A stretch of 34,410 nt of DNA from a virus (lineage: Duplodnaviria > Heunggongvirae > Uroviricota > Caudoviricetes). This document shows, one piece after another, positions 3,894 to 27,364 of this stretch. How positions within the stretch are numbered: position 1 is the stretch's first letter; each line of letters opens with the position of its first letter. The stretch lies in IMG/VR virus record IMGVR_UViG_2778261135_000004; one strand, 5' to 3'. The notes under the pieces were generated by a model. It saw only the letters and a list, made by a program, of their open reading frames with translations, was not told the DNA's origin and ran no database searches. The position numbers were made by a program, and so were the translations under genes.

Positions 3894-4165
3894 GCATTCG
3901 TATTGAAATTGGCGAACGTTATGTCGTTACCAGTGACAGCTTTCAGTTTATTCTCCACGAGAAAAAGAGAGCGGAAAGCGGTAAAAACGCCGGTCAGGAA
4001 TGGCTGGCGGTGGTTGGTTATTACCCGAAATTAAGCCAGCTCGTTTCCGGCCTGATGCATCACGATATTCTGACCGGAAGCGCAAAGTCTTTTGCTGATT
4101 TAAACGCGCAGGTTGAGCAACTCAGCAGGCGTTGTTCAGAGGCTTTTGGCTCATATGGCCGTTAA
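3890..4165 (+). CDS. Hypothetical early protein (P2 orf83-like), 91 aa
   Basis: Translationally coupled ORF immediately upstream of A; overlaps A start by 11 nt. Confidence 0.75.
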   Translation: MSIRIEIGERYVVTSDSFQFILHEKKRAESGKNAGQEWLAVVGYYPKLSQLVSGLMHHDILTGSAKSFADLNAQVEQLSRRCSEAFGSYGR

Positions 4166-6422
4166 AGCCTCCGGGCGTTTTGTCCCTCCGTCAGCATTTG
4201 CCGCAGGCACCGGTAAGACGTTTACCGGTGCTTATGCATGGAACGCGCCACGTGAGGCTGTCGGGCGCGAAAGACCCCTTACACGTGACGAGATGCGTCA
4301 GGTGCAAGGTGTTTTATCCACGATTAACCGCCTGCCTTACTTTTTGCGCTCGCTGTTTACTTCACGTTATGACTACATCCGGCGCAATAAAAGCCCGGTG
4401 CACGGGTTTTATTTCCTCACATCCACTTTTCAGCGTCGTTTATGGCCGCGCATTGAGCGTGTGAATCAGCGCCATGAAATGAACACCGACGCGTCGTTGC
4501 TGTTTCTGGCAGAGCGTGACCACTATGCGCGCCTGCCGGGAATGAATGACAAGGAGCTGAAAAAATTTGCCGCCCGTATCTCATCGCAGCTTTTCATGAT
4601 GTATGAGGAACTCAGCGATGCCTGGGTGGATGCGCATGGCGAAAAAGAATCGCTGTTTACGGATGAGGCGCAGGCTCACCTCTATGGTCATGTTGCTGGC
4701 GCTGCACGTGCTTTCAATATTTCCCCGCTCTACTGGAAAAAATACCGTAAAGGACAGATGACCACGAGGCAGGCATATTCTGCCATTGCCCGTCTGTTTA
4801 ACGATGAGTGGTGGACTCATCAGCTTAAAGGCCAGCGTATGCGCTGGCATGAGGCGTTACTGATCGCTGTCGGGGAGGTCAATAAAGACCGTTCTCCTTA
4901 TGCCAGTAAACATGCCATTCGTGATGTACGTGCACGCCGCCAGGCAAATCTGGAATTTCTTAAATCGTGTGACCTTGAAAACAGGGAAACCGGCGAGCGC
5001 ATCGACCTTATCAGTAAGGTGATGGGCAGTATTTCTAATCCTGAAATTCGCCGGATGGAGCTGATGAACACCATCGCCGGTATTGAGCGTTACGCCGCCG
5101 CAGAGGGTGATGTGGGGATGTTTATCACGCTGACCGCGCCGTCAAAGTATCATCCGACACGTCAGGTCAGAAAAGGCGAAAGTAAAACCGTCCAGCTAAA
5201 TCACGGCTGGAACGATGAGGCATTTAATCCAAAGGATGCGCAGCGTTATCTCTGCCGTATCTGGAGCCTGATGCGCACGGCATTCAAGGATAATGATTTA
5301 CAGGTCTACGGTTTGCGAGTCGTCGAGCCACACCACGACGGAACGCCGCACTGGCATATGATGCTTTTTTGTAATCCACGCCAGCGTAACCAGATTATCG
5401 AAATCATGCGTCGCTATGCGCTCAAAGAGGATGGCGACGAAAGAGGAGCCGCGCGAAACCGTTTTCAGGCAAAACATCTTAACCGGGGCGGTGCTGCGGG
5501 GTATATCGCGAAATACATCTCAAAAAACATCGATGGCTATGCACTGGATGGTCAGCTCGATAACGATACCGGCAGGCCGCTGAAAGATACTGCTGCGGCT
5601 GTTACCGCATGGGCGTCAACGTGGCGCATCCCGCAATTTAAAACGGTTGGCCTGCCGACAATGGGGGCTTACCGTGAACTACGCAAATTGCCTCGCGGCG
5701 TCAGCATTGCTGATGAGTTTGACGAACGCGTTGAGGCTGCACGTGCCGCCGCAGACAGTGGTGATTTTGCGTTGTATATCAGCGCGCAGGGTGGGGCAAA
5801 TGTTCCGCGTGATTGCCAGACTGTCAGAGTCGCCCGTAGCCCGTCGGATGACGTTAACGAGTACGAGGAAGAAGTCGAGAGAGTGGTCGGCATTTACGCG
5901 CCGCATCTCGGCGCGCGTCATATTCATATCACCAGAACGACGGACTGGCGCATTGTGCCGAAAGTTCCGGTCGTTGAGCCTTTGACTTTAAAAAGCGGCA
6001 TCGCTGCGCCTCGGAGTCCTGTCAATAACTGTGGAAAGCTCACCGGTGGTGATACTTCGTTACCGGCTCCCACACCTTCTGAGCACGCTGCAGCAGTGCT
6101 TAATCTGGTTGATGACGGTGTCATCGAATGGAGTGACCCGGAGGTCGTGAGGGCGCTCAGGGGCGCATTAAAACACGACCTGAGAACACCAAACCGTCAG
6201 CAAAGAAACGGAAGCCCGTTAAAACCACATGAAATTGCACCATCGGCCAGACTGACCCGGTCGGAAAGAATGCAAATCACCCGTATCCGCGTTGACCTTG
6301 CTCAGAACGGTATCAGGCCGCAGCGATGGGAGCTTGAGGCGCTGGCGCGTGGCGCGACTGTAAATTATGACGGGAAACAATTCATGTATCTGGTCGCTGA
6401 TGAGTGGATAGGTTTTAGGTGA
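4155..6422 (+). CDS. A: Replication initiation endonuclease A (rolling-circle initiator), ~755 aa
   Basis: Begins MAVKASGRFVPP... at ATG 4155 (ORF track start 4113 is an upstream extension); contains the HxH-type motif (TPHWHMMLF) and the Tyr-containing region (YIAKYISKNIDGY) expected of P2 gpA-family initiators. Confidence 0.9.
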   Translation: MAVKASGRFVPPSAFAAGTGKTFTGAYAWNAPREAVGRERPLTRDEMRQVQGVLSTINRLPYFLRSLFTSRYDYIRRNKSPVHGFYFLTSTFQRRLWPRIERVNQRHEMNTDASLLFLAERDHYARLPGMNDKELKKFAARISSQLFMMYEELSDAWVDAHGEKESLFTDEAQAHLYGHVAGAARAFNISPLYWKKYRKGQMTTRQAYSAIARLFNDEWWTHQLKGQRMRWHEALLIAVGEVNKDRSPYASKHAIRDVRARRQANLEFLKSCDLENRETGERIDLISKVMGSISNPEIRRMELMNTIAGIERYAAAEGDVGMFITLTAPSKYHPTRQVRKGESKTVQLNHGWNDEAFNPKDAQRYLCRIWSLMRTAFKDNDLQVYGLRVVEPHHDGTPHWHMMLFCNPRQRNQIIEIMRRYALKEDGDERGAARNRFQAKHLNRGGAAGYIAKYISKNIDGYALDGQLDNDTGRPLKDTAAAVTAWASTWRIPQFKTVGLPTMGAYRELRKLPRGVSIADEFDERVEAARAAADSGDFALYISAQGGANVPRDCQTVRVARSPSDDVNEYEEEVERVVGIYAPHLGARHIHITRTTDWRIVPKVPVVEPLTLKSGIAAPRSPVNNCGKLTGGDTSLPAPTPSEHAAAVLNLVDDGVIEWSDPEVVRALRGALKHDLRTPNRQQRNGSPLKPHEIAPSARLTRSERMQITRIRVDLAQNGIRPQRWELEALARGATVNYDGKQFMYLVADEWIGFR

Positions 6423-6440
6423 TGTAGAAATTAATGCGGT

Positions 6441-6465
6441 TAAAAAGTAAGAAACTTACTTTTTG
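6441..6465 (+). terminator. Putative intrinsic terminator downstream of A
   Basis: AAAAAGTAAG-AAA-CTTACTTTTT hairpin with T-run about 20 nt after the A stop codon; AT-rich stem, so weak. Confidence 0.4.
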
Positions 6466-6688
6466 GAGTATAAACATTTTAGTTGTCGAGTAAGGAGCCT
6501 CTGCGATATGGCAATTTCATGTGGTGATATTATGATTTCAAACTTGATTATTAGTATTGCAAGATAAGTTTGCAGTAGGTAACGAGCGTGTAAGGTATTG
6601 TGAGTTTTGTTGTTGTGCATTATATTGATTTTCTTAAGTTTATTGTGTTGGTTGTAATTGAAACTTAACAATTAATTAAGGAAAAAGA

Positions 6689-9040
6689 ATGTTAAAGAGG
6701 ATTAAATTAATAGAGGGCGTAGGTAACTATATTAAAGCTCGCTCCAGCTCTTATGAGTTTAATAACATGAATGTTATCTACGGTGAAAATAGACATGGTA
6801 AAAGTACTCTTTGTGACATCTTTTATTCTTTATCAACGAATACTCCTGAATTGGTTGTTAACAGAAAGACTATTCTGGAGGGAGATGGTGAAGTAATTCC
6901 AAGGATTGATTTACAATTCACAGAGGGGAGTTCAAATAGAGTTGTTTCATTTTATGTAGATAAATGGTCAGGATTACCACCACCAGATTCTAAATTATAT
7001 ATCTTTGATCAGAGTTTTGTTCATAGAAATGTAATGGCAGGTACAGTATCTAATCGAGAAAACTCTGAATGTGTTACTGCATTTATTTTGGGTGAAGACA
7101 ATGTTGCTGCTTTTGAAGCTCTGGAAAAGGAGAATGCAGAATTAAGAAGTTTAAGAGGTTCGTTAAGAAGTAAAAAAGATTTAATTCAATCACACCAAAT
7201 TGATAACGTTGATGAGTATGCTAATAGTGAGCCTGTCATAACAGATTATGATTGCGTTGACTCAAAAATAAATGAGCTTATTAAGTCAATACAAGAAGTT
7301 GAAAAGAAGAAAACAGCCGTCAAATATATTAAAGCAAGGCCGTTGTTTAATTTAATTAACTGTACACCAAAGTTGAAAGATATTTCAATTAGGGTTAATA
7401 AATGTCTTTCTTCTGGAATGGCTACAATTCATGACGATGCACTTTCTATATTAGAGCGACATAAAGAGAGAATAAAGGCTCACGATCATTTTAATGGATG
7501 GATCTCAAACGGGCTTGGTATGGCCACAGAAATATGTCCATTTTGCGGTCAGAGTATATCAGGAGAATCAAAAGAGCTGATTAGTGCTTATAAGGATTCA
7601 TTTGATGAGTCATTTATGCGCTTTATTGAAAGTACAAAAAAAGAATTAAAAGAAATAAGGCGGATTGATTTTTCATTTATCTCATTAAATGTAATTGATG
7701 ATGTACATAGCAAAAACATTGATGTTTTGTCACAGTATTTAGAGAATGAGATAAAAAATGAATTAAGTAATAATGGAAGGTTTGAGTCATGTTGTGCTAT
7801 TTATAATCAAGTAAGAAATGATATATTGACATTTAACCAAGATCTACTTAAGGCTCAGCAATCACTGGAGTGTATATATGATGAGAAAGAATTAGCTGTA
7901 TACAACGAAATGAAGGGGTTTGATTTTTCGGCTCTTCTACAATTTGAGCATGAAATTCATGGCAAATTGGAATCATACAATAGCATTATTAATCAGCTCA
8001 ATGATGAGTTGGTGAAGTATAAAGAAAGTATCAATTCCACCAAATTAGATGTATTACTGGGAATCTATCAAAAAGATCTTGAGCAGTGGGAATCTAATAA
8101 AAAAAGATTATTGCTTGAGCCAGATTGTCGAGAATATCTTGAACTGAAAAAAGAAATAGATATTAGGGAAAAAAACTATAATGAGAAGAAGAAAACATTA
8201 GAGGAATGCCAGGAGCAATTTTTAAACAAATATTTTGAGCACATTAATTCTCTGTTCTGTTCTGTTGGATCTAGTAAATTTTCTATAAATAAAAAAATAA
8301 ACAGGCAGGGTACAAAAATTGTTTATGAACTTGACGTTTCATTTAATGGGAAGGCAGTTGGAAAAAACAAACTTAATTGTTTGTTTAGTGAGTCAGATCG
8401 CCGAGCTTTGGCTTTGTGCATCTTTCTTTCTAAAATTTACTTGTTACCTAATGATGAGAAATCAAAAGCTATTCTTATTATGGATGATCCTGTAACAAGT
8501 TTTGATGAGGAAAGAATATCTTGTATTTTGCAGAAGTTGTATGAATTACAGCCTTATGTAAAACAGATGTTTATTACTACACACTATAAAGGAATGGCAG
8601 CAAAGACATCTCAAAAATTTAATTTGGATAGAATTCTTCAGATCAAACAAGGTCAAGACGGTTCTAATTTTGAACCGCTGAAGGTAGAGCAATTAATAGC
8701 TTCAGACCATGAGAGATCCTATGAGAGGATTGTTGATTTTATAAATGGTGTGGATACTGATAAGACAATAATACTATCTTTAAGGCCATATCTTGAATCA
8801 GAATTCCGTTCTCGTTATCGCAAACAACTGACAGACTGCAACTTAAATGATAGAACGGATTTTTCTGTGTGTATTAATCGACTGGCTGAAGATGGTATTT
8901 TGGAAGAGGAGACGGCCAGAAGAATTCATGGGTTTAGAACTGCACTCAATGAGCCTATGCACGTTATCCGTGAATGGACTGATGAAGATATGAAAAGTTA
9001 TGCGCAGGATATGCTACGCCTAATATATACAGAACTTTAA
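6689..9040 (+). CDS. Cargo gene at the tin/old hotspot: Rad50/RloC-like ABC ATPase with CxxC coiled-coil insert and uncharacterised C-terminal domain, 783 aa (candidate anti-phage defence protein)
   Basis: Walker A GENRHGKST (aa 32-40); long K/E-rich coiled-coil insert with CPFC (aa 283-286); signature-like SESDRRALAL (aa 567-576); Walker B/D-loop ILIMDDPVTSFD (aa 595-606); H-loop TTHY (aa 631-634); ~150-aa C-terminal domain without obvious TOPRIM motifs. Strongly AT-rich relative to the prophage backbone; RBS AAGGAAAAAGA upstream. Confidence 0.8.
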   Translation: MLKRIKLIEGVGNYIKARSSSYEFNNMNVIYGENRHGKSTLCDIFYSLSTNTPELVVNRKTILEGDGEVIPRIDLQFTEGSSNRVVSFYVDKWSGLPPPDSKLYIFDQSFVHRNVMAGTVSNRENSECVTAFILGEDNVAAFEALEKENAELRSLRGSLRSKKDLIQSHQIDNVDEYANSEPVITDYDCVDSKINELIKSIQEVEKKKTAVKYIKARPLFNLINCTPKLKDISIRVNKCLSSGMATIHDDALSILERHKERIKAHDHFNGWISNGLGMATEICPFCGQSISGESKELISAYKDSFDESFMRFIESTKKELKEIRRIDFSFISLNVIDDVHSKNIDVLSQYLENEIKNELSNNGRFESCCAIYNQVRNDILTFNQDLLKAQQSLECIYDEKELAVYNEMKGFDFSALLQFEHEIHGKLESYNSIINQLNDELVKYKESINSTKLDVLLGIYQKDLEQWESNKKRLLLEPDCREYLELKKEIDIREKNYNEKKKTLEECQEQFLNKYFEHINSLFCSVGSSKFSINKKINRQGTKIVYELDVSFNGKAVGKNKLNCLFSESDRRALALCIFLSKIYLLPNDEKSKAILIMDDPVTSFDEERISCILQKLYELQPYVKQMFITTHYKGMAAKTSQKFNLDRILQIKQGQDGSNFEPLKVEQLIASDHERSYERIVDFINGVDTDKTIILSLRPYLESEFRSRYRKQLTDCNLNDRTDFSVCINRLAEDGILEEETARRIHGFRTALNEPMHVIREWTDEDMKSYAQDMLRLIYTEL

Positions 9041-9269: not shown

Positions 9270-10304
9270 TCAGCCGTTGTCAGTGTCCAGTGAGTAGTTT
9301 TTAAAGCGGATGACCTCCTGACCGAGCCAGCCGTTTATCTCGCGGATCCTGTCCTGTAACGGGATAAGCTCATTGCGGACAAAGACCTTTGCCACTTTCT
9401 CAATATCTCCCAGTGACCCGACGTTCTCCGGCTTGCCGCCCATCAACTGAAAGGGGATACGGTGCGCGTCCAGCAGGTCAGCGGCGCTGGCTTTTTTGAT
9501 ATTAAAAAAATCGTCCTTCGTTGCCACTTCACTGAGCGGGATAATTTTAATGCCGTCAGCTTTCCCCTGCGGGGCATAGAGAAACAGATTTTTAAAGTTG
9601 TTGCGACCTTTCGACTTAACCATGTTTTCGCGAAGCATTTCGATATCGTTGCGATCCTGCACGGCATCGGTGACGTACATGATGTATCCGGCATGTGCGC
9701 CATTTTCGTAATACTTGCGGCGGAACAGCGTAGCTGATTCATTCAGCCAGGCAGAATTAAGGGCGCTGAGATATTCCGGCAGGCCGTACAGCTCCTGATT
9801 AATATCCGGCTCCAGCAGGTGAAACACGGAGCCGGGCGCGAAAGGTGTCGGCTCGTTGAAGGACGGCACCCACCAGTAAACATCCTCCTCAACACCACGG
9901 CGGGTATATTTTGCCGGTGAGGTTTCCAGTCTGATGACCTTACCGGTGGTGCTGTAGCGCTTTTCCAGAAACGCATTACCGAACACCAGAAAATCCAGCA
10001 CAAAGCGGCTGAAATCCTGCTGGGAAAGCCACGGGTGCGGAATAAACGTTGAAGCCAGAATATTACGTTTGACGTAAATCGGTGAGCTGTGATGTACGGC
10101 AGCACGCAGGCTTTTTGCCAGACCGGTAAAGCTGACCGGTGGCTCATACCATCTGCCGTTACTGATGCACTCGACGTAATCCAGAATGTCACGGCGGTCG
10201 AGTACCGGCACCGGCTCACCAAAGGTGAATGCCTCCATTTTCGGGGCGCTGGCGGTGATTGTTTTTGCCGCAGGTTGCGGTGTTTTCCCTTTTTTCTTGC
10301 TCAT
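9270..10304 (-). CDS. Q: Portal protein Q, 344 aa
   Basis: 344-aa ORF; P2 gpQ length and sequence; start ATG overlaps the P stop (ATGA). Confidence 0.95.
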   Translation of the reverse strand: MSKKKGKTPQPAAKTITASAPKMEAFTFGEPVPVLDRRDILDYVECISNGRWYEPPVSFTGLAKSLRAAVHHSSPIYVKRNILASTFIPHPWLSQQDFSRFVLDFLVFGNAFLEKRYSTTGKVIRLETSPAKYTRRGVEEDVYWWVPSFNEPTPFAPGSVFHLLEPDINQELYGLPEYLSALNSAWLNESATLFRRKYYENGAHAGYIMYVTDAVQDRNDIEMLRENMVKSKGRNNFKNLFLYAPQGKADGIKIIPLSEVATKDDFFNIKKASAADLLDAHRIPFQLMGGKPENVGSLGDIEKVAKVFVRNELIPLQDRIREINGWLGQEVIRFKNYSLDTDNG

Positions 10305-23264: not shown

Positions 23265-23792
23265 ATGCAGCATTTGATAAATATAACGGCAGGTAATCCA
23301 AAAACGGTTGAACAATATCAATTGACAAAGGACTTTGATGTTGTCTGGTTTTTTTCAGAAGATGGTAAGAACTGGTACGAAGAACAAAAGTATTTTGCTG
23401 ATGACACGATAAAAATAGCGTACGACAAAGATAATATTATCCGCTATGTGGAAAAGGATGTGACAGCTATCAGACCGGATGGATTAAGTGTTGTTGAAGT
23501 GCCGGATATTACTGCTAACCGACGGGCGGACATTTCAGGGGGCTGGATGTTTAAGGACGGTACAGTGATTAAACGAATTTATACGGCAGAGGAATTGCAG
23601 CAGCAGGCAGAAAATCGGAAAGCCAGACTTCTTGCAGATGCTGAATCCGTGATTTTGCCGCTGGAGCGCGCTGTCAGGCTGAACATGGCAACAGAGGAGG
23701 AGCGCACACGGCTGGAGGCTTGGGAACGCTACAGCGTTGTGGTCAGTCGTGTGGATCCTGCAAATCCTGAATGGCCGGAAATGCCGCAATAA
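23265..23792 (+). CDS. G: Tail fibre assembly chaperone G, 175 aa
   Basis: 175-aa ORF immediately after H; P2 gpG length and sequence. Confidence 0.9.
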
Positions 23793-23825
23793 GTTGTATG
23801 AACTCTGGTGTGAGCTTACATATCT

Positions 23826-23885
23826 ATGGCACAGAGTAAAGCCTAATCTGACAGTCCGCTCTGTGCCAAAAGCGGACTGTCAAAT
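23826..23885. terminator. Nested inverted repeats between convergent G and cargo gene (putative bidirectional terminator)
   Basis: TGGCACAGAG/CTCTGTGCCA (23826..23835 / 23860..23869) and AATCTGACAGTCCGC/GCGGACTGTCAAATT (23844..23858 / 23871..23885) can form alternative hairpins; no clean T-run. Confidence 0.4.
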
Positions 23886-23990
23886 TGCATCAAAAGAGCA
23901 TTGATATTACGTTTATTAATATTTCTCAATAATCCCTCAATACTATAAAGGGTTTAGAGACCTAGTTCTTACTTATATCTGGATACAGAT

Positions 23991-25787
23991 CTACGATTTA
24001 ATATCAAATAAAGAACTTTCACCTTTGAATATATTCACCCAATGGTATTGTATGTATTTCATACGGTTTGTGTTTCCGTTGACGTAAGGAATGGTTCTTC
24101 TTTCGATTGTAGAATACATTTGCGCAAGGTGTGTGGTCATTTTTTTATCTCGGCTAATTGCAACTTTTCCATCTGAACGAATGGCAATGAAACCATTTTC
24201 GAAAAGTGAATCACATATTGCACATTGCAACATTGCTATGTTATCGAAATCTGCTCGCTCTTCATGTGTGCATTTAGATCTAGGTTTCACATGCGCAGCA
24301 ATGAGAATAGCATGCGGCCATGAATTTCCGCAAATCTCACAGACCCCTACATTATTTTCATTGCTATATAACAGCGATTGTTGAAGGAGCAGGTATTCTC
24401 GAAGTAATGCTTGTTCTGCACGAGTCTTTCTTAAAAAGGTTCCCAGCACATCTAGTGAATCCAATTCGCTTCTGATGTCTGTTATTTTTCTTCTTATACT
24501 ATCTATTCTTTCCATTCTGGTATCGATAGGCCGAGCCACTTGCTTGGTTGGAATATATTCATCATCAAGTGGTTTGTAGTAATCATTTCGTCTCCCGCCA
24601 CCTTCTTTGTAATACAAGGTTGGATAACTAAAAATCAATGATTTGAAAGCTTGCGGGATTTTCCCTTTTAATTCCCTACCAATGCTCATTGAGTCTAAGG
24701 GGCCACCATTTGATTTTATAGCATTTAAGGCAATAACTTGATAATGGATAGTACCACTGACATCTTCCAATTGGAGTTCTGAATAAAGGCTATCTCCAGG
24801 TATTCTATAACCGGGTGTTGACTCTTGTAGTAATCCAGTTTTCAAACAATAATCGTCCAGAGCACCATCGGCGCTTTCTAGAAGCTCTAGGCAGGGGGGT
24901 TGACGGGCATCTGCACTACGACGGAAGTTGTGTGTAAGGGCCCTTTTTAAAGCAGATATAACTCTTTCAACTTTTAGTGGGTTTTTATAATGAATAAAAA
25001 TTGGTTTGAGAATTCGACTAACTCTTTCGTCACGAGACGTGAAAGCATAAAAACGTCCATTAGAAATAGATAAAAAATCTTCTTCAGTTGAAATTAAGTC
25101 AGATATATATTGCACCTTAATTTCATCAGGAATTTCCCTAATAAAACCAGGAGGGTCTGACTCCCATGAACAAACAGCAAGTTTTTCTATTGAAAATAAA
25201 CCACCAAAATACGTTGATATCTTTCCGGCATATGTGATTAAATCGCTAGTAATGGATTTGGGATTATGATTTTCTTCCAGTATGATTTGATGTCCATTAT
25301 ATTCATGAAATTTGAAATGTGCATTTATTTCGAATGATTTTGCTAACTGAGTAACTATAGGAAGATAAATGTTACTATCAATTACACCTGCTGCTATAAG
25401 AGTGCTTTGGACTTTATTTGAAAATACTGGTTTTTTAGTGGTCGTTATTTTTCCGATTAATATTTCAATCAATTTCTTCAATTGAATAAGGTCAGTTTTC
25501 GCAGCTAGGGTAATCGTATCACCTGCTACCAAGCCTCGGTTGAGCCGACTTAGTTCTGACGGCAAGTCTTGATTTAAGAATTTTGATATGATCTGACGTG
25601 CTCTTTCTCTCGTGACCTCTTTCTTGAGTTCAGGTAGTTTACCCAGCGTATCTAAGGTCAAGTTTCTGCTAGAAGATGTCTGAGTAAAGTGTGCTTTCAA
25701 TATGATCTTAGTAGTTTCTGATGTATTCTTCTTTTGATAAATGCGATCAATCAGTTCTGTAATAATTTCTTGGTAGGTTTTACTCAT
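23991..25787 (-). CDS. Cargo gene at the G-FI (Z/fun) hotspot: ~598-aa protein with C-terminal HNH-type nuclease motif and N-terminal HTH-like segment (candidate anti-phage defence nuclease)
   Basis: C-terminal motif CEICGNSWPHAILIAAHVKP...ADFDNIAMLQCAICDSLFENGFIAI (CxxC ... AAH ... N ... CxxC ... F-x-NG; HNH/His-Me finger, HNH_2-like by eye); N-terminal segment TLDTLGKLPELKKEVTRERARQIISKFL resembles sigma-70 region-4-type HTH. Start taken at ATG 25787; the track start 25799 is a GTG. Strongly AT-rich. Confidence 0.8.
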   Translation of the reverse strand: MSKTYQEIITELIDRIYQKKNTSETTKIILKAHFTQTSSSRNLTLDTLGKLPELKKEVTRERARQIISKFLNQDLPSELSRLNRGLVAGDTITLAAKTDLIQLKKLIEILIGKITTTKKPVFSNKVQSTLIAAGVIDSNIYLPIVTQLAKSFEINAHFKFHEYNGHQIILEENHNPKSITSDLITYAGKISTYFGGLFSIEKLAVCSWESDPPGFIREIPDEIKVQYISDLISTEEDFLSISNGRFYAFTSRDERVSRILKPIFIHYKNPLKVERVISALKRALTHNFRRSADARQPPCLELLESADGALDDYCLKTGLLQESTPGYRIPGDSLYSELQLEDVSGTIHYQVIALNAIKSNGGPLDSMSIGRELKGKIPQAFKSLIFSYPTLYYKEGGGRRNDYYKPLDDEYIPTKQVARPIDTRMERIDSIRRKITDIRSELDSLDVLGTFLRKTRAEQALLREYLLLQQSLLYSNENNVGVCEICGNSWPHAILIAAHVKPRSKCTHEERADFDNIAMLQCAICDSLFENGFIAIRSDGKVAISRDKKMTTHLAQMYSTIERRTIPYVNGNTNRMKYIQYHWVNIFKGESSLFDIKS

Positions 25788-26173
25788 AGCAATCCACACT
25801 CATAAAGTACTGTAAAATGATCCGACTGATTTCTGTAATCATCTCTCATCGGTCCATACCTAACTTGCGGCTAATGAAATGAATATAAAATCATCTAATG
25901 CCTTTTGCTAATTTGATAATGCTATATTTCTTGGAAAATTACACTCTAAAAGGTTAAGTCTGCTCCTCGCTCAAAGCAGACTGTCAGATTTGATAGCGTT
26001 TGGGCTATGTAAATTGTCAGTTGGAAAATGAGTGAGTGCAAATCATGACAGGCAGGCGGATTACCCGCTTTTTCTTTGTCTGTTGTTTCATCCACTGACC
26101 AGCCAGGTCAAATAGCGTCTCATGCACTGCCCAACAGAAAATAGTTGCACCCATTAACCACGGAGTTAAACGG

Positions 26174-27364
26174 ATGAGTGACTATCATCACGGCGTGCAG
26201 GTGCTGGAGATTAACGACGGCACCCGCGTCATTTCCACCGTATCCACTGCCATTGTCGGCTTGGTCTGCACGGCCAGCGATGCGGATGCGGAAACCTTCC
26301 CCCTCAATAAACCTGTGCTGATTACCAATGTGCAGAGTGCAATTGCAAAGGCTGGTAAAAAAGGCACGCTGGCGGCATCGTTGCAGGCCATCGCTGACCA
26401 GTCAAAACCGGTCACCGTTGTTGTGCGTGTGGAAGACGGCACCGGCGACGACGAGGAAACGAAACTCGCGCAGACCGTATCCAATATCATCGGCACCACC
26501 GACGAAAACGGTCAGTACACCGGACTGAAAGCCCTGCTGGCGGCGGAGTCGGTAACCGGTGTTAAACCGCGTATTCTCGGTGTGCCGGGACTGGACACCA
26601 AAGAGGTGGCTGTTGCACTGGCATCAGTCTGTCAGAAGCTGCGCGCTTTCGGGTATATCAGCGCATGGGGCTGTAAGACCATTTCCGAGGTGAAAGCCTA
26701 CCGCCAGAATTTCAGCCAGCGTGAGCTGATGGTCATCTGGCCGGATTTCCTCGCATGGGATACGGTCACCAGCACCACCGCCACCGCGTATGCCACCGCC
26801 CGTGCGCTGGGTCTGCGTGCCAGAATCGACCAGGAGCAGGGCTGGCATAAAACGCTGTCCAATGTCGGGGTGAACGGTGTTACCGGCATCAGCGCATCTG
26901 TATTCTGGGATTTGCAGGAGTCCGGCACCGATGCTGACCTGCTTAACGAGTCAGGCGTCACTACGCTGATTCGCCGTGACGGTTTCCGATTCTGGGGTAA
27001 CCGTACCTGCTCTGATGACCCGCTTTTCCTCTTTGAAAACTACACCCGCACCGCGCAGGTGCTGGCCGATACGATGGCTGAGGCGCACATGTGGGCGGTG
27101 GACAAGCCCATCACCGCAACGCTGATTCGCGACATCGTTGACGGCATCAATGCCAAATTCCGTGAGCTGAAAACAAACGGCTATATCGTGGATGCGACCT
27201 GCTGGTTCAGCGAAGAATCCAACGATGCGGAAACCCTCAAGGCCGGAAAACTGTATATCGACTACGACTATACCCCGGTGCCTCCTCTCGAAAACCTGAC
27301 CCTGCGCCAGCGTATCACCGATAAATACCTGGCAAATCTGGTCACTTCGGTTAACAGCAATTAA
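26174..27364 (+). CDS. FI: Tail sheath protein FI, 396 aa
   Basis: 396-aa ORF; P2 gpFI length and sequence. Confidence 0.95.
   Translation: MSDYHHGVQVLEINDGTRVISTVSTAIVGLVCTASDADAETFPLNKPVLITNVQSAIAKAGKKGTLAASLQAIADQSKPVTVVVRVEDGTGDDEETKLAQTVSNIIGTTDENGQYTGLKALLAAESVTGVKPRILGVPGLDTKEVAVALASVCQKLRAFGYISAWGCKTISEVKAYRQNFSQRELMVIWPDFLAWDTVTSTTATAYATARALGLRARIDQEQGWHKTLSNVGVNGVTGISASVFWDLQESGTDADLLNESGVTTLIRRDGFRFWGNRTCSDDPLFLFENYTRTAQVLADTMAEAHMWAVDKPITATLIRDIVDGINAKFRELKTNGYIVDATCWFSEESNDAETLKAGKLYIDYDYTPVPPLENLTLRQRITDKYLANLVTSVNSN

Follow-up and report, generated by a model that had tools for sequence, protein, structure and literature searches.

The 34,410-nucleotide stretch analysed here (IMG/VR virus record IMGVR_UViG_2778261135_000004; hereafter the window) is a P2-like (Peduovirus) prophage that carries an AT-rich segment of variable, low-GC cargo, the Z/fun hotspot, between its genes G and FI. 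This segment ends in two 24-bp palindromic sites with the same arms and different centres, which we term L (left) and R (right). From comparative sequence evidence, we hold with moderate confidence that L and R are the site-specific recombination sites of a cassette system adopted by P2, and that they mark the ends of a cassette at positions 23854-25981. The finding probably points to a site-specific cassette system with a range far wider than P2. At the Z/fun hotspot, rapid replacement of cargo between conserved core genes has been described (Rousset et al. 2022, PMC9122126; NAR 2026, PMC13586616). These two main papers on the P2/P4 hotspots call the recombination process unresolved (PMC9122126, PMC13586616), and a text search of them returned no description of boundary hairpins or sites.

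The first-pass annotation of the window had reported inverted copies of a short motif on either side of the cargo. The motif is real, its two exact 16-mer copies agreeing at 15 of 16 positions in inverted orientation, but each copy had been placed one nucleotide too far left, the actual positions being 23845-23860, 23871-23886 and 25975-25990. The bracketed cargo is indeed AT-rich, with a GC content of 28-44% versus 51-62% in the flanks. A search for the 16-mer at up to three mismatches gave five matches in the window versus 0.43 ± 0.61 expected from 100 dinucleotide-preserving shuffles, none of which reached five, arguing against frequent occurrence by chance; the remaining two matches (5815 and 24333), with three mismatches each, are probably noise. 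A boundary runs through the 16-mer, with nine nucleotides belonging to a landing pad on the phage side and seven to the arm of a site, and the meaningful units are the two 24-bp sites. The core genes and boundary elements are as follows:

23265..23792, plus strand: G (tail fibre assembly), the left core gene of the hotspot; open reading frame, the counterpart in matching phages bearing the annotation tail fiber assembly protein
23845..23860, plus strand: left 16-mer AATCTGACAGTCCGCT, composed of the 9-nt pad flank AATCTGACA and the phage-proximal L arm GTCCGCT; majority-base frequency 0.97 over 39 cargo types
23854..23877, plus strand: L site, 24 bp (GTCCGCT 23854-23860, CT, centre GTGCCA 23863-23868, AA, cargo-proximal AGCGGAC 23871-23877); placed by conservation, homology to a non-P2 copy of the cassette beginning at 23854
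23871..23886, minus strand: near-palindromic partner AATTTGACAGTCCGCT of the left 16-mer (one mismatch), composed of the cargo-proximal arm and TGTCAAATT
25958..25981, plus strand: R site, 24 bp (cargo-proximal GTCTGCT 25958-25964, CC, centre TCGCTC 25967-25972, AA, phage-proximal AGCAGAC 25975-25981); placed by conservation, the same homology stopping at 25981
25975..25990, minus strand: right 16-mer AATCTGACAGTCTGCT, composed of the phage-proximal R arm and the 9-nt pad flank TGTCAGATT; majority-base frequency 0.94-0.96 over 38 cargo types
26174..27364, plus strand: FI (tail sheath), the right core gene of the hotspot; open reading frame and annotations in matching phages

In each site, inverted arms of 7 nt and linkers of 2 nt surround an asymmetric centre of 6 nt, the arms being the same in L and R and the centres different (consensus L = GTCCGCT yy GTGCCA rr AGCGGAC; R = GTCCGCT yy TCGCTC ay AGCrGAC). 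As the right 16-mer also lies within a local hairpin (AGTCTGCT-N10-AGCAGACT, 25957-25982), the two boundary elements are direct as well as inverted repeats (23853-23886 versus 25957-25990, 76%). The 16-mer plus hairpin forms an inverted repeat between the two ends (alignment score 39 versus 11 ± 4 in shuffles), and none was found between the outermost ~50 nt of the left and right conserved edges (score 7 versus 7 ± 3 in shuffles).

To compare G-FI loci, we assembled 14 named P2-like phages with differing cargo and 80 IMG/VR loci retrieved by their FI protein, a query independent of the motif; G and FI could both be placed in 72 loci (71 retrieved ones and the window itself), and grouping of the cargo by k-mers gave 40 clusters. 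This revealed that the left site is present in 39 and the right site in 38 of the 40 cargo types, the left copy lying 53 nt past the G stop codon (41 nt in alleles with a 12-nt deletion) and the right copy ending 183-184 nt upstream of the FI ATG, whatever the cargo. The sites are kept even where G identity falls to 44-47%, and L is always on the left and R always on the right, with cargo genes on either strand. The motifs are thus, as had been suggested, the conserved edges of a variable segment, in the named phages and the FI-anchored sample alike, and they persist beside unrelated cargo. The left-edge allele with the 12-nt deletion is common to several unrelated cargo types (L005, L006, L012, L019, L037, L047 and L079; handles of this form denote individual loci), and therefore one backbone allele has received different cassettes. 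Cargo-bearing loci that depart from the pattern include L044, which has neither site and whose segment opens with a different terminator-like hairpin, and L027, which has no R; these may be independent insertions or eroded pads. Locus L080 has an internal L-like site at 530-620, followed 34 nt on by an R-like site and TGTAAGAGTTGATTG, a diverged P2 right edge, and looks like the remnant of a nested or duplicated pad.

The conservation profile across these loci changes abruptly inside the sites. The majority-base frequency is 0.94-0.97 over the phage flank, the phage-proximal arm and the central hexamer (38-39 cargo types), 0.49 at the two nucleotides between hexamer and cargo-proximal arm, 0.81-0.88 in the cargo-proximal arm and 0.46-0.49 in the cargo. 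The drop from ~0.96 down to 0.49 thus coincides exactly with the hexamer edge that faces the cargo, mirror-symmetrically at L and R. It follows that each cargo brings its own inner arm and is joined to the phage where GTGCCA (L) or TCGCTC (R) ends towards the cargo, a profile that exchange within or at the centre would be expected to leave.

Three further features of the region concern the landing pad:

23793..23853, plus strand: left conserved pad edge, 61 nt; present in all cargo-bearing P2-like loci and 77.6% identical to a non-P2 element in L230
25982..26047, plus strand: right conserved pad edge, 66 nt; lacking in empty-junction prophages
26054..26080, plus strand: intrinsic-terminator-like hairpin with T-run, from a terminator scan; 2-5 nt past the G stop codon in empty prophages

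Nine prophages, four among 10 such matches in complete Escherichia coli genomes and five in the IMG/VR sample, have G directly followed by FI at a distance of 128-132 nt, in the order G stop, 2-5 nt, intrinsic terminator, late promoter region and FI. These empty junctions (L015-L018, L030, L056, L061, L087 and L090) lack both sites and both pad edges, and relative to them 23793-26047 is one insertion, a landing pad of ~130 nt split by the cassette. A cargo-free pad with an L/R hybrid site (a 16-N(6-14)-16 palindrome) had no match in IMG/VR, as would be predicted if the centres of L and R are heterospecific. We rejected the pad as a miniature inverted-repeat transposable element (MITE) bounded by terminal inverted repeats or an ERIC-like element, the P2 pad termini sharing only TTGTA, which is at chance level; a resemblance to ERIC would lie in the 11-nt GAGCTTACATA. 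A related structure lies outside P2: contig L230 (NCBI JBRGBJ010000008.1, reverse complement of 4816-8093) contains a 3,278-bp element with 26-bp terminal inverted repeats (24/26 matching, TTGTATTAGCTCAGATTTGA...) that holds a P2-like left edge, two cassettes (DUF2971 and HNH) and R followed by TGTCAGATTTGAT. This element lies near a 247-aa integrase gene and CP4-57-like island genes and is not accompanied by G or FI. The landing pad may itself be mobile; the P2 pad termini show no significant inverted repeat.

The boundary hairpins had been proposed to act as a terminator and a promoter-proximal element. A rival explanation holds that the cargo moves by homologous recombination only, being exchanged through G, FI and the conserved edges by RecA or by recombinases of the phage, that the hairpins are backbone elements with an RNA or transcription role (an insulator, an mRNA 3'/5' stabiliser or a non-canonical terminator), and that the borders look precise only because insertions harmful to the hairpins are selected against. 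We consider this unlikely. Neither hairpin is followed by a T-run on either strand and the loop is 10 nt long, unlike an intrinsic terminator. The only terminator-like site that the scan found in the region is 26054-26080, which directly follows G in empty prophages; therefore the boundary hairpins are not the G terminator, and the proposal made for them is not supported. The fixed order of the hairpins, with cargo facing either way, further argues that they are not expression signals of the cargo. On the other side, both elements do fold as single-stranded DNA (left, 23845-23886, -13.6 kcal/mol, z = -6.9; right, -7.0 kcal/mol, z = -2.8), as a structural role in transcription would have it. 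Loops are conserved as strongly as stems, however, and the sole variable stem position, position 4, shows independent transitions with no excess of double changes (C-G 67, C-A 27, T-G 24 and T-A 4) and hence no compensatory change. We also rejected an RNA-structure reading of the sites, as they match no Rfam family (in the window or in three array loci) and show no compensatory changes; we likewise rejected pairing at a distance between the two 16-mers of a read-through transcript, as their substitutions across phages are independent, with no co-variation. Together these sequence patterns favour a DNA site read by a protein over an RNA element, and a duplex or a folded-strand substrate would both be compatible with them.

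Binding of the inverted 16-mers by a phage or host regulator (Ogr, C, Cox or an IHF-like factor) that loops out or silences the cargo would suit a palindrome conserved at the level of sequence rather than structure. We consider this scarcely credible as the left and right copies substitute independently, nothing matches TGT-N12-ACA on inspection and the sites are abundant where P2 genes are absent. A P2-specific regulatory binding site (for Ogr or C) is not supported on this last ground, the same sites occurring at 120 or more loci and on 919 plasmids without P2 genes. A second hairpin, GGCACAGAG ... CTCTGTGCC (9 bp with a 22-nt loop, 23828-23867), overlaps the L site, and the two foldings are mutually exclusive. 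Changes in other phages keep its pairing on the plus strand compatible with G-U pairs (for instance L005 GCGTAGAG, L004 CTCTGTGTC), and it could be an RNA element at the end of the G transcript.

The cassette of the window has a close relative outside P2:

23854..25981, no strand assigned: cassette unit of 2128 bp (L site, cargo and R site), delimited by blastn to L231
23991..25787, minus strand: cargo gene, running against the L-to-R direction; 598 aa, or 602 aa if translation begins at a GTG further upstream (25799); HNH_2 domain at the C terminus

The only recognisable domain of the cargo protein is Pfam HNH_2 (residues 483-536, E = 3e-4), with weak PADLOC matches to HNH and type II restriction endonuclease (REase) models. 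Its family is rare (24 clusters), and the cargo was found in one of 5,426 complete E. coli genomes, that of SBF45 (NZ_CP067232.1), with a sequence identical to the window. The closest relative of the protein (94% amino acid identity) is encoded on L231, a 100-kb non-P2 contig, among genes for APH(6), an acetyltransferase, a TetR regulator, a hydrolase and GSHPx. By blastn, positions 23854-25981 of the window match 2167-41 of L231 with 94.9% identity over 2,128 nt and nothing outside aligns, the homology thus starting with the first base of L and ending with the last one of R; therefore the mobile unit is defined at the resolution of the sites. Both copies have the same polarity, with 113-114 nt from the stop codon to L and 170 nt from the start codon to R, and in L231 the R site is followed by the junction spacer. 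A more distant relative (81%) lies in the two-cassette array of L230, between its P2-like left edge and R + TGTCAGATTTGAT. That the same sites occur in non-P2 arrays whose flanks have no homology to P2 speaks against movement by homologous recombination only, as just the 24-bp site is shared there for recombination. A 9-nt extension of the left inner arm (TGTCAA onward), which yields a near-perfect 16-10-16 palindrome, is confined to the window and L089, the L231 cassette having GAAC instead of TGTC after that arm. Both gene conversion from the R flank TGTCAGATT and plain mutation could have produced this extension at 23871-23886.

Where P2-like loci hold several cargo blocks, the blocks are separated by an R site, 18 nt and an L site, as in the G-FI locus of E. 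coli EcPF40, where such a double site lies between a gene for a 461-aa protein and one for a DUF3800 protein. We scanned for this arrangement (TCGCTCANAGCRGAC-N16-20-GTCYGCT) in one genome per species and found it at 120 or more non-P2 loci across Enterobacterales, in genera that include Pantoea, Klebsiella, Rahnella, Buttiauxella, Citrobacter, Kluyvera, Serratia, Yersinia, Erwinia and Enterobacter; none of 18 P2 proteins is encoded at the 120 double-site loci listed. The consensus of the double site is aAc GTCCGCT cc TCGCTCAy AGCGGAC CTTCAGCTCAGTTAGCTt GTCCGCT yc GTGCCA gr AGCGGAC rTTg, its L half having the same consensus as the P2 L site (131 non-P2 instances). Arrays are frequent, with a junction every 0.7-3 kb in uniform orientation, and they separate assorted accessory genes on either strand, among them genes for hydrolases, LysR, AraC and TetR regulators, and GNAT, ASCH, HNH and SDR proteins. 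The double site is found on 919 plasmids, chiefly of Klebsiella, Enterobacter and Pantoea, and in 1,136 E. coli genomes; the one E. coli instance opened (EcPF40) lies within P2 G-FI, and many others share its record coordinates. An array on a Lelliottia plasmid opens with a lone L after ...CACA and closes with a lone R before TGTCA..., the same as the ends in P2. Plus-strand cassettes often share a leader right after L (RTTGMTnACA-N-TATGTTAAT-N-GGGAG; L049, L020, L025, L080, L014, L168, L183, L158 and L197), which looks like a -35/-10 promoter with a ribosome-binding site. The presence of such a conserved promoter-like leader in many plus-strand cassettes would suit hairpins with a transcriptional role and counts towards the explanation by homologous recombination only.

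The candidate enzyme emerged from the spacer of this junction. On the Lelliottia plasmid and at 4 of the 120 double-site loci listed, a gene for a 200-aa tyrosine recombinase, rec2, lies in the spacer position between the R site and an L half-site, giving a long-form junction of AAC GTCCGCT cc TCGCTCAT..[rec2]..terminator hairpin..TGTGCCAGG AGCGGAC GTT. All rec2 homologues match Pfam PF00589, and a putative catalytic pattern R..K..HxxR..H..Y (KLRGCD, QKTG, HSMRR, LGH, VRY) was read by eye rather than from an alignment with reference recombinases. The family is widespread: all but one of the candidates scored, 8,000 being the ceiling of the search, are homologues, the matches listed include 120 at 77-96% identity from several gammaproteobacterial genera, and rec2 is found on 403 plasmids and in 915 of 5,426 E. 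coli genomes (~17%), reaching alpha- and betaproteobacteria. One E. coli copy lies at 4120327-4121040 of NZ_LR778141.1. In Providencia islands, Idiomarina, SXT/R391-like integrative and conjugative elements (ICEs) and E. coli, an L half-site fused to a terminator hairpin lies 28-49 nt past the rec2 stop codon; it is itself followed by variable cassettes in E. coli and Providencia. Among 79 usable rec2 loci of 80 retrieved from metagenomes, no more than 90 nt separate the stop codon from an L half-site in 9 of 9 close homologues and in 20 of 70 at 55-75% identity (background 0.03 per 90 nt), and diverged rec2 clades have a half-site with a co-varied CGGCCA centre. These linkages suggest that rec2 may be the enzyme that acts on the sites. 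Its protein product scores 55 bits on a XerA/integron model (cut-off 220), has no match to TIGR02249 and weakly matches an NCBIfam tyrosine-type DNA invertase model; a PDB sequence search with it gave no match. In Idiomarina (L233), rec2 is followed by an operon with an eptA-like phosphoethanolamine transferase gene. In L234-L236, homologues lie in SXT/R391-like ICE regions (traF/traH/traG, rumAB-like, mer and ars genes) with L and R sites nearby, and the sites may border ICE variable regions.

Two further explanations concern the junction. The double site could be a selfish miniature element (REPIN- or MITE-like) of which the rec2 form is the autonomous version, the cassettes being whatever lies between insertions and the P2 sites being remnants. 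R is an imperfect inverted repeat of L (6 of 10 loop positions complementary) at a distance of ~18 nt, and the double-site consensus folds as one long hairpin (-24.7 kcal/mol, z = -6.7); the long form holds a recombinase between its halves, like a REP-associated tyrosine transposase (RAYT) flanked by repetitive extragenic palindromic (REP) sequences, and there are many copies per genome or plasmid. Such an origin nonetheless seems improbable to us, more so than homologous recombination only, as the P2 order L...cargo...R is what circular permutation of the element would give, rather than cargo enclosed by an element, and lone L sites at array starts and lone R sites at array ends, in P2 and on the Lelliottia plasmid, are unexpected from insertion of whole elements. 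In addition, one 2.1-kb L-to-R block in two unrelated contexts must have moved as a block, and the orientation of the element is uniform within arrays. The REP/BIME (bacterial interspersed mosaic element) and REPIN-RAYT systems likewise have short palindromic repeats paired in intergenic DNA, many per genome, and an enzyme gene flanked by repeats. In place of their HUH Y1 transposase, however, the enzyme here is a PF00589 tyrosine recombinase; a GTAG-type tetranucleotide is lacking, and the repeats bound exchangeable blocks and share one orientation throughout an array.

Alternatively, the sites could be integron attC sites and the arrays clusters of attC sites without an integrase (CALINs), recombined by IntI on folded single strands. 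In outcome there is a resemblance to integrons: unrelated accessory genes, defence genes among them, are split by an imperfect palindrome (~60-130 nt in integrons) with AAC...GTT ends, and a recombinase gene is followed by a site and then by cassettes. The double site separates cassettes in arrays of one orientation, spans 66-73 nt between conserved AAC ... GTT that may correspond to the attC R''/R' ends (aAc-[66 nt]-rTTg in the consensus), and forms a long imperfect hairpin with internal unpaired stretches. We judge this explanation very improbable all the same. No IntI (~320 aa, with an extra IntI domain) was found near any array, rec2 being far below the cut-offs for integron integrases. 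Cassette genes lie on either strand, often behind their own promoter-like leaders, whereas integron cassettes are mostly promoterless and co-oriented. The internal sequence of the double site is strongly conserved across genera, unlike that of attC, the junction being a conserved pair of 24-bp palindromes, and the ends in P2 are half-elements.

Other known systems resemble parts of what is proposed here. In the pdif modules of Acinetobacter plasmids, gene modules lie between XerC/XerD sites in opposite orientation with their borders exactly at the sites, in many different plasmid contexts, a mechanism drawn from comparative data. The present sites differ in being 24 bp long, versus the 28-bp dif consensus, in having no TTATGTTAAAT arm and in forming a junction of two sites 18 nt apart instead of a single shared one, and a small dedicated recombinase takes the place of the chromosomal XerCD; on inspection, the consensus sequences of L and R do not have the layout of a XerCD/dif-type site (28 bp, 11-6-11, XerD arm TTATGTTAAAT). 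Recombinase-mediated cassette exchange with heterospecific lox or FRT sites uses identical arms, different spacers and a double exchange of fixed polarity with engineered Cre or FLP; here the arrangement is natural, and heterospecificity is suggested by the two conserved hexamers only. FimB and FimE share with rec2 a length of ~200 aa and the lack of a large N-terminal domain, and they act on short inverted repeats, as rec2 is proposed to, but they invert a promoter segment, and rec2 forms a distinct, much more widespread family. A generic tyrosine-recombinase core site would have two inverted binding arms around an asymmetric crossover region of 6-8 bp that contains the recombinant borders; L and R show arms, a conserved asymmetric hexamer and, in both sites, a conservation step at the edge of the hexamer.

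We propose that L and R act as the two sites of a cassette exchange. Having the same arms and different centres, L would recombine only with L and R only with R, strand exchange taking place in the 6-nt centre. A cassette circle, or an array-borne cassette carrying R-18 nt-L, would integrate by L x L or R x R to give a two-cassette array, and recombination at the other pair of sites would delete the resident cassette, the net result being that one cassette replaces the other in fixed polarity and with precise borders. The enzyme is likely to be rec2, working in trans wherever the host has the gene, and once in P2 the cassette would spread among P2-like phages by homologous recombination in G and FI. 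Such a model would explain why the L...R order is fixed and the orientation of genes free, why arrays end in half-junctions, why conservation falls in a step and why empty pads are lacking. More tentatively, we suggest that these components make up an undescribed platform that is like an integron in outcome but has different parts, a 200-aa tyrosine recombinase with two heterospecific 24-bp sites across Gammaproteobacteria, as a mechanism by which hotspot cargo is acquired and replaced; on the same tentative footing, the platform might act on chromosomes, plasmids, ICE and island hotspots and the P2 G-FI defence hotspot.

Several observations weigh against this proposal. Sites are eroded or atypical in a few loci (L012, L010, L029, L044, L027 and L080), and the 7-10-7 layout has a 10-nt distance between arms that is long for a tyrosine-recombinase core, the 9-6-9 parsing having been fitted to the conservation profile. 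Because L sites do not differ from one another, the left breakpoint between the window and L231 can be placed only to somewhere within L. No excised circle or recombinant junction has been observed. The recombinase rec2 is encoded neither by P2 nor on the SBF45 chromosome, and therefore any exchange happened elsewhere or earlier; within the 8 kb examined, it accompanies only 5-6 of the 120 double-site loci listed. An alternative enzyme adjoins one array, a 329-aa Xer-like tyrosine recombinase encoded at 5584-6573 of L222, ~1 kb upstream of the first L of the Lelliottia array (69 bits, cut-off 265; a 79% homologue in L160). Finally, within the P2 population the conserved edges usually move together with their cargo, and the breakpoints fall in G (for instance, L014 and L074, with the same cargo, are 86% identical in G and 100% in the left edge), and therefore homologous recombination suffices for most spread from phage to phage. 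This sharing of edges by one cargo across different G alleles is also what homologous recombination only would produce, and it is homologous recombination that the hotspot papers invoke (PMC13586616, PMC9122126). The 329-aa recombinase may be an alternative or an accessory to rec2 and may be linked to the 'xerC' beside mcr-10 (PMC9431528); the one Enterobacter plasmid examined was not an mcr-10 context.

Within the window, the L and R sites are limited to G-FI and were found in none of its other hotspots. The other P2 hotspot (6689-9040), between A (4155-6422) and Q (9270-10304, minus strand), contains a 783-aa open reading frame and no L or R sites. Nilsson et al., in Mol Biol Evol in 2004, are said to have proposed site-specific recombination for the TO region, that is, for this other hotspot. 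PMC6823313 places the TO region at tin/old, between A and Q. We found no description of the L and R sites or of a role of rec2 in the searchable literature, several older P2 papers lying outside the search, so that an earlier description is possible; the literal site sequences had no match in the papers searched, and keyword queries for comparable systems gave only integron papers.

If correct, the reading of L and R as recombination sites would link the P2 hotspot to cassette arrays on enterobacterial chromosomes and more than 900 plasmids, and would provide a signature for cassette borders and hence for new defence or accessory genes, as well as a naturally occurring exchange system with two sites, of potential use as a tool. 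Should the enzyme part prove wrong, the site-to-site borders and their wide distribution would still be useful for annotation. Fast and clean replacement of cargo in phage and satellite hotspots thus becomes testable, with two 24-bp sites, a predicted R-18 nt-L intermediate, circular or within an array, and a candidate enzyme.

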